Origin: Octopus vulgaris
Taxonomy: Eukaryota
Assembly: GCA_951406725.2 (NCBI GenBank)
Contig: OX597814.1
Span: 51,212,001-51,276,000, forward strand
DNA: 64,000 nt
Reading direction: 5' to 3'
Below the pieces are notes generated by a model that saw only the letters and a program-made list of their open reading frames with translations, was not told where the DNA came from and did not search any database. The position numbers were made by a program, and so were the translations under genes. This document shows positions 7,601 to 10,600 of this stretch, in pieces. The stretch's first letter is position 1. Each line of letters starts with the position of its first letter.

Positions 7601-10600
7601 CTTACTAATGTAGATTACCACTAGTCTCCTTGGATTCTGTTTTATCATTCACACACACATTATATATATATATATATATATATATATATATATATAAAAA
7701 TAAATATAAGAGAGTGGTCACTATAATGCTCACTCTAGCACCAGTTAATCCAAAAGGTTTCAACCGCGTATTTATCGTTATGGTAAAATCTGGCGTGTGA
7801 TTGAGTGGATTTCATCCAGATAGTCTTGGCTGACGAGCTACAAATGGATTTTTTGTAAGTAATATTACATTTAATTCATTAATAGCGAAACAATTGTCCC
7901 AAAATAATCTGTATTTTTGTTATTTTTTATTTGCCCTGTCCGTGTGAGCTAACAGTCGTGCTGACTTTCATGGGAAACATGTATTTTCGTGGTTGAAACC
8001 TTTTGGATTAACTGGTGCTAGAGTGAGCATTATAGTGACCACTCTCTTATATTTATTTTGTAAAAATATTATAATATGTTATAAAATATTATAATAATCC
8101 AGGTTTCTCGTAGCACTAGGCCACTTGGTGTTGAATAAATATACTATTAAATTAGTATCTAATTCTCTCACCCTTATTAATTAATTATAATTATGCTGCA
8201 TTTATTTCTAAATGCTGTATTTGTTTTCCGTGAGAGTTTGGCGCGCTGTTGGTTGGGGCATTTGAATTATAACGTCGGATGTAATCAATTGAACCACACG
8301 CGTATTTATCGTTATGGTAAAATCTGGCGTGTGATTGAGTGGATTTCATCCAGATAGTCTTGGCTGACGAGCTACAAATGGATTTTTTGTAAGTAATATT
8401 ACATTTAATTCATTAATAGCGAAACAATTGTCCCAAAATAATCTGTATTTTTGTTATTTTTTATTTGCCCTGTCCGTGTGAGCTAACAGTCGTGCTGACT
8501 TTCATGGGAAACATGTATTTTCGTGGTTGAAACCTTTTGGATTAACTGGTGCTAGAGTGAGCATTATAGTGACCACTCTCTTATATTTATTTTGTAAAAA
8601 TATTATAATAATCCAGGTTTCTCGTAGCACTAGGCCACTTGGTGTTGAATAAATATACTATTAAATTAGTATCTAATTCTCTCACCCTTATTAATTAATT
8701 ATAATTATGCTGCATTTATTTCTAAATGCTGTATTTGTTTTCCGTGAGAGTTTGGCGCGCTGTTGGTTGGGGCATTTGAATTATAACGTCGGATGTAATC
8801 AATTGAACCACACGCGTATTTATCGTTATGGTAAAATCTGGCGTGTGATTGAGTGGATTTCATCCAGATAGTCTTGGCTGACGAGCTACAAATGGATTTT
8901 TTGTAAGTAATATTACATTTAATTCATTAATAGCGAAACAATTGTCCCAAAATAATCTGTATTTTTGTTATTTTTTATTTGCCCTGTCCGTGTGAGCTAA
9001 CAGTCGTGCTGACTTTCATGGGAAACATGTATTTTCGTGGTTGAAACCTTTTGGATTAACTGGTGCTAGAGTGAGCATTATAGTGACCACTCTCTTATAT
9101 TTATTTTGTAAAAATATTATAATATGTTATAAAATATTATAATAATCCAGGTTTCTCGTAGCACTAGGCCACTTGGTGTTGAATAAATATACTATTAAAT
9201 TAGTATCTAATTCTCTCACCCTTATTAATTAATTATATATATATATATATATATATATATAGGGAGAGTTCATGAAATAAACAAAAGACGAAGACAGGTG
9301 GTGTACAAAACAAATAGATATATTAGTATAATGCTCAGGAATTGAAAAAGTCTTTTACATTTTGAGCCTTTGCTCTTCTACAGAAAGGGACACAGAAAAA
9401 AACAAGGAGAGAAAAAAAAATGTGTGTAGTGGCTAGCGATCTATCATGGCAACTCATATATATATATATATATATATATATATATGTAGAAAACAAAGAA
9501 GGAAAACTAATAAATAATAATGTTTTGATATTTACCACTAATGACAGTAAAACGATACCATCATGATTGGGGCATTTCACAAAACTTGTCGTATCTGATT
9601 TTTCTATTAAATATTCCAAGTCAAAAAGATGTTTGTTTTCTTCTGCAGAAAAATAAAAGTAGATAAACAAAAGTTTAGATTTAAAAGTCAATATGACAAA
9701 GGGAAAATCCCTGCTACTTAACACTATACATATTCATACACACAAAGCACAATCATAGATGCACACATATAAGCACAAACACACATAGATGTTTATTTAA
9801 ATTTAAAAAGAAAAGCACAGACAATAAAAAAAAATCATATGTAAAGTAAATGCAAGTAAATTATATCAGATATACGCACCAGGACAATATGGGCATGGAG
9901 CAAGTATTTGTACAGTTTTATTTCCAAATATGTCAGTTGCTAGTAATCCTGGATACCATTCTTCAATCAGAGAATCAATATGATCAGCTATTTCTCCCAT
10001 TAATCTGGAAAATTTACAAATAAATATGTATTACTATAGTTAAATGACATCAAATTTTAGTAAACCCTTTTTCGCTGTGTAGTTGAGAGGCTTGCCTCCC
10101 AGCCATGTGGTCCTGGGTTTAATCCACTGTGTAGTACCTTGGGCAAGTGTCCTCTATTACAGCCCTGAGTGGATTTGGCACATGAAAACTGAATGAAGCC
10201 TGTCATGTGTGTGTGTGTGTGGGCATGTATGTATACCCACACATACACACACATGAATGGGTGCTGAAAAGTTCCTGATTTCGAGTAAAAGAAAATACAG
10301 GAGGATCAGTAAATTATGATTTTATTCAACATATGCCCCTCTCAGATTCACACACTCATTGCAGTGTTCCTTCAGTTTTTCTAAGCCTTGTAAAAGGACT
10401 TGGAAGTTTGGGCCTCCAGCCAGGCTTTTTGCGATACCCTTAAAGCCAGGAAGTTTTCAAGTACCCCCTCGTGTATGTGTGTGTGTGTGCACGTGTGCAT
10501 GTAATTGTCTTGACATTATATGGTTGATGCATCGTCGTATTAGCAAGGTTGTTTATGTCTAGCCTTCCATGTAAAGTAAATCAAGCTATGGGAAAATATA

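Follow-up and report, generated by a model that had tools for sequence, protein, structure and literature searches.

A young tandem hammerhead array in an intron of an octopus LRRK2-like gene is probably a retrozyme insertion written by a Penelope-like enzyme

The window analysed here, the whole stretch of 64,000 nucleotides from contig OX597814.1 of Octopus vulgaris, carries in an intron of an LRRK2-like gene a tandem array of non-coding units with one type I hammerhead motif each, and this array is very probably a non-LTR retrozyme driven by Penelope. The reading that we prefer, with a probability of roughly 0.6, is that of a young non-coding retrozyme insertion, likely written by a Penelope-like (probably Hydra-clade) reverse transcriptase (RT)-endonuclease that primed from both cut strands and likely ran round a 534-nt RNA circle. 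A first-pass annotation of the same DNA had already called this class, a candidate non-LTR retrozyme that a Penelope RT could mobilise, and the call is borne out by the dispersed tandem units, the absence of an ORF, the TA target and the ends of Penelope type. The array combines features known from hammerhead repeats with features known from Penelope insertions, and we therefore assign it to a new non-LTR retrozyme family.

Results

Structure of the array

The array lies between the two (TA)n tracts that the first-pass annotation had placed at its flanks (Table 1), and the three complete type I hammerheads claimed there were located with start-to-start spacings of 534 and 514 nt. The forward part holds about 2.8 near-identical units, as had been stated, and no long ORF, the longest stop-to-stop frame overlapping the array being 72 aa. 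The reported 69-bp inverted head is present as a perfect reverse complement of 7991-8059, contains no hammerhead and joins the main arm through 1 nt of microhomology; it had been listed as a side feature, but forms the second, short arm of an insertion with two ends. Monomers of 534 and 514 nt both occur as predicted, the smaller one not as a distinct size but as a local variant equal to the 534-nt monomer minus 20 nt, deleted between short direct repeats. The incomplete first and last units share 100% identity with the 534-nt monomer, and the near-identity of the units agrees with the recent insertion that had been proposed. Non-LTR retrozymes are non-coding repeats that lack LTR-type structure and have a GC content below 45-50% and a complete type I hammerhead in two or more units in a row, and the array shows these features, with 33% GC and three consecutive hammerheads. 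A target-site duplication, which in retrozymes exceeds 4 bp where it is present, cannot be read, because (TA)n stands on both sides of the array. The 13-nt motif of the tail hairpin has further copies in the array at 8118 and 8632, and may be a protein-binding signal. Just upstream of the array there is a 65-nt imperfect inverted repeat (7390-7454 and 7526-7590, 72%), which is apparently unrelated.

Table 1. Features of the array and of its host intron, in positions of the window; unit positions are counted from the base after the predicted cut (position 1)
Feature	Positions	Strand	Remarks
Downstream host exon	5944..6017	-	In phase with the upstream exon; 3' boundary approximate
Left (TA)n tract, target microsatellite	7661..7696	.	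(TA)n terminates nearly all family loci
Short inverted arm	7697..7765	-	Unit positions 93-161; terminates at the fixed short end B
Main arm, 2.8 tandem units	7765..9236	+	From unit position 401 to the fixed long end A (~288-291)
Type I hammerhead motif 1	7826..7903	+	Predicted cut after 7898
Type I hammerhead motif 2	8360..8437	+	Predicted cut after 8432
Type I hammerhead motif 3	8874..8951	+	Predicted cut after 8946
534-nt full cut-to-cut monomer	7899..8432	+	33% GC, strongly structured; predicted circular intermediate
514-nt monomer	8433..8946	+	Private 20-nt deletion
~130-nt tail of the last unit, between ends B and A	9108..9236	+	Penelope-type optional tail
13-nt motif in the tail hairpin	9166..9178	+	Invariant in three sister families
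Right (TA)n tract	9234..9261	.	
Upstream host exon, LRRK2-like gene	9536..9642	-	Donor GT at 9535

Hammerhead motif and fold of the unit

The hammerhead of the array has a stem I of 4 bp, which is extendable, and a long stem II, and the fold of these two stems (z -3.5) was equalled by none of 200 shuffles. Stem III has only 2 bp plus a palindromic loop, and the 8-nt palindrome of loop III is unfavourable as a hairpin (+2.4 kcal/mol) and favourable as a duplex (-6.4 kcal/mol). By analogy with the amphibian case, these energies fit a hammerhead that would act as a dimer. The hammerhead pattern had 1,525 matches in the whole genome and none in the reversed control, so it does not arise by chance, and 82 of the first 100 matches belong to the family of the array. 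The Rfam hammerhead search that the first-pass annotation had suggested as a check returned no match, whether with the gathering score or with an E limit of 10, and our guess is that the long stem II is the reason. The 534-nt monomer as a whole is strongly folded, with z -7.5 (100 shuffles).

The family in the genome

The searched genome comprises 2.8 Gb in about 30 large contigs. The unit gave 769 candidate places, of which 40 were scored, and the tail motif gave 2,573 matches, with 91 of the first 100 falling in the family of the array (32 loci over 75 Mb); the counts for the tail motif and the hammerhead pattern suggest a family size of roughly 800-1,200 loci. Seventy-one loci were examined, namely the 40 best-scoring ones and 31 from the chromosome-1 lists. 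The copies are dispersed and mostly 96-100% identical. Since the unit stands in tandem at many independent loci, the array is not an assembly artefact of a single unit, and since no locus out of 71 was fused to a Penelope ORF (four Penelope protein queries), it is not an ordinary pseudo-LTR; both possibilities had been raised in the first-pass annotation. Penelope fragments near four loci (L036, L044, L211 and L217) were considered as the parent ORF and proved to be separate insertions, beyond the TA tracts or kilobases away. At L036, L044, L130 and L198, different TA-targeting elements are stacked in one another's terminal TA tracts.

Two fixed ends of the insertions

The outer ends of the arms lie at two sites only, B (about position 161) and A (about positions 288-291), with (TA)n after each, and the inner ends lie at variable positions. 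The 71 loci consist of 43 simple head-to-head pairs, 24 single arms (18 A and 6 B) and 4 complex loci. Forty of the 43 pairs are A+B by coordinates and two more by eye, one is degraded, and neither AA nor BB pairs were found. The shortest arm has 69 nt and the longest 6.8 kb, or about 12.7 units, and the inner joints mostly show an overlap or microhomology of 0-4 nt or short templated inserts. Fixed 3' ends, 5' truncation, an inverted 5' copy and a one-sided tail are all present in the family. The inner ends of A arms fall at positions 130-200 in 3 of 37 cases; they are not clustered at site B, and so do not agree with simple twin priming on a single linear RNA. Of the 96 inner ends, 10 lie within 14 nt past the cut site, three of them exactly on the cut (binomial p 2e-4 with a window chosen after looking; scan p about 0.05), a weak hint that the enzyme is stopped by cleaved ends as well as by stem I.

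Sister families

Two other non-coding families were each tried as the parent element of the array's family (F1) and proved to be its sisters. The first, F1b (L168-L199, e.g. G000:C12:50.05 Mb), has a unit of ~525 nt with the same two-end layout, 1,929 candidates, older copies of 86-97% identity, and a T-T pair at the base of stem II; among 30 loci whose ends were analysed, 19 of the 21 head-to-head loci are A+B and the other two are unclassifiable. The second, F1c (L200-L203), has its own stem I and the cleavage triplet GUU, shares the 13-nt tail motif with F1, and obeys the end rule in both head-to-head loci seen. Stem I is TTGG/CCAA, TCTA/TAGA or GCTG/CAGC in the three families, with pairing kept throughout, and the hammerhead core is conserved across all three, only position 7 being free to vary. 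The circular folds of F1 and F1b contain the same long stems (z -5 to -13, from 12 shuffles only). In an alignment of six F1 and four F1b units, 22 of 83 consensus pairs were changed on both sides, against 0-4 when the structure was slid along the alignment; 47 of 500 shuffles also reached 22, which is not significant, and the covariation amounts essentially to one split between two families in a structure derived from the same alignment. Compensatory changes appear to have kept the hammerhead stems and a fold of the whole unit intact in the sister families, as would be expected of selection at the RNA level.

Uniformity of the arrays and the nature of the template

Subfamily variants are fixed through all covering units of a locus in 163 of 181 locus-cases (57 loci), and the two arms of a locus agree on them in 110 of 114. 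Together with the end data, such uniform arrays favour the repeated copying of one monomer. In the remaining 18 of 181 cases the variants are mosaic, and a few private variants are shared by neighbouring units, so that some exchange takes place at the DNA level. A satellite without any RNA step, in which a stranded pseudo-LTR was multiplied in place by unequal crossover and turned by fold-back inversion, could draw on those few adjacent private variants and on the local amplification of terminal repeats discussed in the text of Li et al. 2026, but it is at odds with hundreds of dispersed young loci, and the two fixed 3' ends, the variable 5' ends, the strict A+B pairing and the RNA stems with compensatory changes are typical traces of target-primed reverse transcription. 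We consider this origin very improbable, and the end-rule data have already largely refuted it.

A few (nearly) private variants recur in non-adjacent units, at unit positions 285 and 335 of L147 (there in both arms), 247 of L033 and 73 of L047; they could be due to gene conversion, to noise in the assembly or to one damaged template base that was misread repeatedly.

The same Penelope machinery with two starts may also have used a linear template, either an uncleaved tandem transcript or a monomer with template jumps, so that the hammerhead would only trim. Run-off on cleaved linear RNA predicts inner ends exactly at the cut site such as the three found among 96, and young donors are homogeneous themselves, so that uniform arrays need no circle; 5' truncation, on the other hand, only shortens arrays, yet arms of 12-13 units occur in several subfamilies, and the variants are nearly always fixed per locus and not mosaic. 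Probable RNA contigs point to read-through of genomic copies from end A into (TA)n, and uncleaved RNA was the dominant substrate of an anole element in vitro, as described in PMC11167929, but the cut-site junctions are seamless in almost all tandem units, and repeated jumps would have to match them. We regard a linear template as doubtful, and copying round a circle is the reading that we retain.

Candidate Penelope partner

The search for a partner covered 140 of 11,494 RT candidates and 150 of 6,136 GIY-YIG candidates, which were scored. The GIY-YIG search yielded a Neptune-like family, and the first link to Hydra-type elements was a similar hammerhead beside one of its copies, which belongs to the 3' end of a Hydra-type element; the RT search then turned up many intact frames. 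Several Hydra-type families (L148-L167) have intact frames of 941-1,091 residues with long asparagine-rich inserts, and are assigned to the Hydra clade by their motifs, hammerhead and (TA)n target, not by a tree; the motifs (RWK, modified DKG, CxCX5C linker and C-terminal GIY-YIG) were found in L148-L152, L155, L156 and L167. A Pfam scan of two of these frames recognised no domain. In these elements (TA)n follows either about 35 nt or 125-160 nt past the hammerhead cut, and in 36 loci a short and a long end were combined in 9 of 11 head-to-head pairs, the exceptions being L153 and L129. Their hammerheads have a long stem II and the same type of loop III as the unit of the array, and the hammerhead region of the unit is 74% identical to that of one Hydra-type family over 88 nt (E 9e-9), a likeness (z up to 8) that is inflated by the shared core. 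Tails measure about 95-120 nt in Hydra-type elements, 113-130 nt in the family of the array and 38 nt in Neptune-like elements. The target, the tail length, the build of the hammerhead and the end rule point to the Hydra clade as the probable partner.

The mobiliser may instead be a TA-targeting Penelope family outside the Hydra clade, such as the Neptune-like one or one outside the sample. The Neptune-like family (L100-L107) is abundant, with many intact 781-residue frames carrying RT and GIY-YIG domains, inserts in (TA)n and has an optional tail, and the tail of the array shows no similarity above shuffles to seven sampled Hydra tails (z -1.7 to 1.1), nor is the 13-nt tail motif present in the sampled Penelope loci. 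Neptune-like tails of ~38 nt nevertheless stand against the long tails common to the array's family and the Hydra families, the Neptune-like hammerhead is minimal with a degenerate core, as opposed to their long-stem-II build, and Neptune-like DNA has no similarity to the unit above shuffles, so that we judge a partner of this kind unlikely and keep the Hydra clade as the probable one. The degenerate Neptune-like core (TTGATAA) occurs in all copies listed, yet the family looks young.

Host gene and surroundings of the array

The array had been described as antisense within an LRRK2 intron, and a LRRK2-like gene is indeed encoded on the minus strand, with exons for ANK, LRR, COR-A and COR-B. 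The exon at 9869-10030 is somewhat more similar to human LRRK2 (E 6e-7) than to LRRK1 (E 1.5e-6). The intron that bears the array spans 6018-9535 and is GT-AG and of phase 0. Because all three hammerheads are antisense to the pre-mRNA in this copy, they would not cut it. The insertion looks like a recent passenger, with no sign of a function for the host gene. Elsewhere in the window, a LINE-type reverse transcriptase fragment (44700-45875, minus strand; RVT_1, E 3e-26) lies in an intron of the host gene, and a fragment of a Tc5/pogo-type transposase DNA-binding domain (E 1e-11) at 47962-48435 on the minus strand. A plus-strand frame at 6615-6860 is presumably similar to the C-terminal end of a LINE RT.

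RNA runs and editing-like changes

Four runs were aligned to the monomer, out of 24 of which none is recorded as RNA; three are called probable RNA from their substitution pattern alone, and the fourth is large and DNA-sized. A>G plus T>C changes account for 13 of the 17 changed places in one probable RNA run and for 48 of 58 in another, whereas genomic copies have 46 of 155 (Fisher p 2e-4 and 3e-12, respectively), with no excess in the third (2 of 6) and 2 of 7 in the large run. In 40 of 68 rows, 15 of 21 A>G sites and 11 of 12 T>C sites were absent from all 211-273 genomic units. The excess, which concerns the family and not the array locus, looks like A-to-I editing (background in PMC5625713) of both strands, a pattern to be expected of intronic head-to-head arrays. 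With hundreds of perfect head-to-head arrays, the family could plausibly supply double-stranded RNA for editing, and the excess gives a weak hint of its transcription. The probable RNA contigs extend from end A into (TA)n, and therefore genomic copies are read through. Fixation of RNA edits in new copies of the family was not detected: of 43 variants fixed at a locus, 10 were A>G and 9 were T>C (p 0.26). The back-joint 8432->7899 was considered as evidence of a circle and is uninformative, because it is present in all four runs including the DNA-sized one.

Discussion

The array resembles metazoan non-LTR retrozymes, as these are described in the texts of Cervera and de la Pena 2020 (PMC7229834) and Li, Clavereau and Pollet 2026 (10.64898/2026.07.22.740005), in its dispersed tandem non-coding units, one type I hammerhead per unit, low GC content and co-occurrence with Penelope-like elements. 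Cervera and de la Pena gave monomers of 170-400 nt and proposed that the circles are copied by Penelope RTs, and Li et al. gave unit lengths of 51-972 bp with a phylogeny that supports mobilisation by Penelope. The earlier remark that the units are longer than known retrozyme monomers holds against the first range and fails against the second, in which 534 nt falls. The short stem III resembles that of dimer-acting amphibian motifs, and Li et al. reported 8 of 9 Xenopus retrozyme dimers without cleavage. The family of the array differs from retrozymes as described in that most of its insertions are head-to-head and have two fixed ends that adjoin (TA)n. The Xenopus retrozyme families are sisters of pseudo-LTRs, whereas the unit of the array has, outside the hammerhead, no detectable relation to the terminal repeats of the sampled autonomous elements. 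Circles have been demonstrated for known retrozymes, whereas that of the array is predicted.

The likeness to Penelope elements of the Hydra clade, as described by Craig et al. 2021 (PMC8557442), includes the (TA)n target, a canonical hammerhead, partial tandems, an inverted 5'-truncated copy and a tail at one end. In contrast to these elements, the family of the array has no ORF and many full turns of a short unit, its tail of 113-130 nt compares with a published 30-40 bp, and its short end lies 161 nt past the cut as against about 35 nt. Frangieh et al. 2024 (PMC11167929) reported in their text that the protein of the anole Poseidon element PAc cuts and extends both strands in vitro, that its RT starts at two internal RNA sites which define the tail, and that uncleaved RNA was used, the hammerhead being dispensable in vitro. 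Two internal start sites bounding a tail, both strands cut and extended, and AT-rich targets would be common to PAc and the array, but PAc showed no difference in start site between the strands in vitro, whereas the two ends almost always differ in the family of the array. The inverted Penelope insertions of Adineta vaga (Arkhipova et al. 2013, PMC3846280) are likewise head-to-head repeats with an optional tail at one end, and were explained by self-priming on an antisense template. For the A+B rule on a non-coding multimer we infer that two target-primed starts are a better explanation than self-priming.

We propose the following course. A tandem donor copy would be transcribed, adjacent hammerheads would cut the transcript, possibly as dimers via the palindromic loop III, and a host ligase would close the monomer to a circle. 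The Penelope enzyme would then cut both strands of (TA)n, a different 3' end would prime at each of the sites A and B, the cDNAs would run 0.1 to about 13 turns round the template, and the joining of the two cDNA ends would give the head-to-head array.

An element of this kind is already known, and three points are added here: an insertion uses each of the two start sites almost strictly once, on a multimer that encodes no protein; the tail is three times as long as those published; and the fold is conserved in a lineage for which no parent can be recognised. In the open literature covered, we found none of these three in print, no hammerhead retrozymes in octopus and no strict two-end rule for retrozymes. 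The way in which animal retrozymes return to genomes and the origin of inverted one-tailed Penelope insertions are both open questions, and Craig et al. 2021 named the tandem and inverted Penelope structures as an unsolved task. Since the substrate is small and defined (534 nt, two mapped starts and a TA target), the genome itself encodes intact candidate enzymes and the rule can be counted in genomic copies, the two-ended and rolling-circle models are directly testable in vitro.

A wider reading, which we put forward tentatively and at less than even odds, is that an independent old lineage of structured circular RNAs, with at least three families and no kinship to any autonomous element still recognisable beyond the ribozyme, parasitises a dimeric Penelope enzyme, the two RT subunits of which would begin at two fixed starts and roll round one circle from both strands of a single cut. 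If this is true, the rule of one short and one long end would be a general explanation of inverted Penelope insertions and of their one-sided tail, and each array would be a direct record of rolling-circle reverse transcription.
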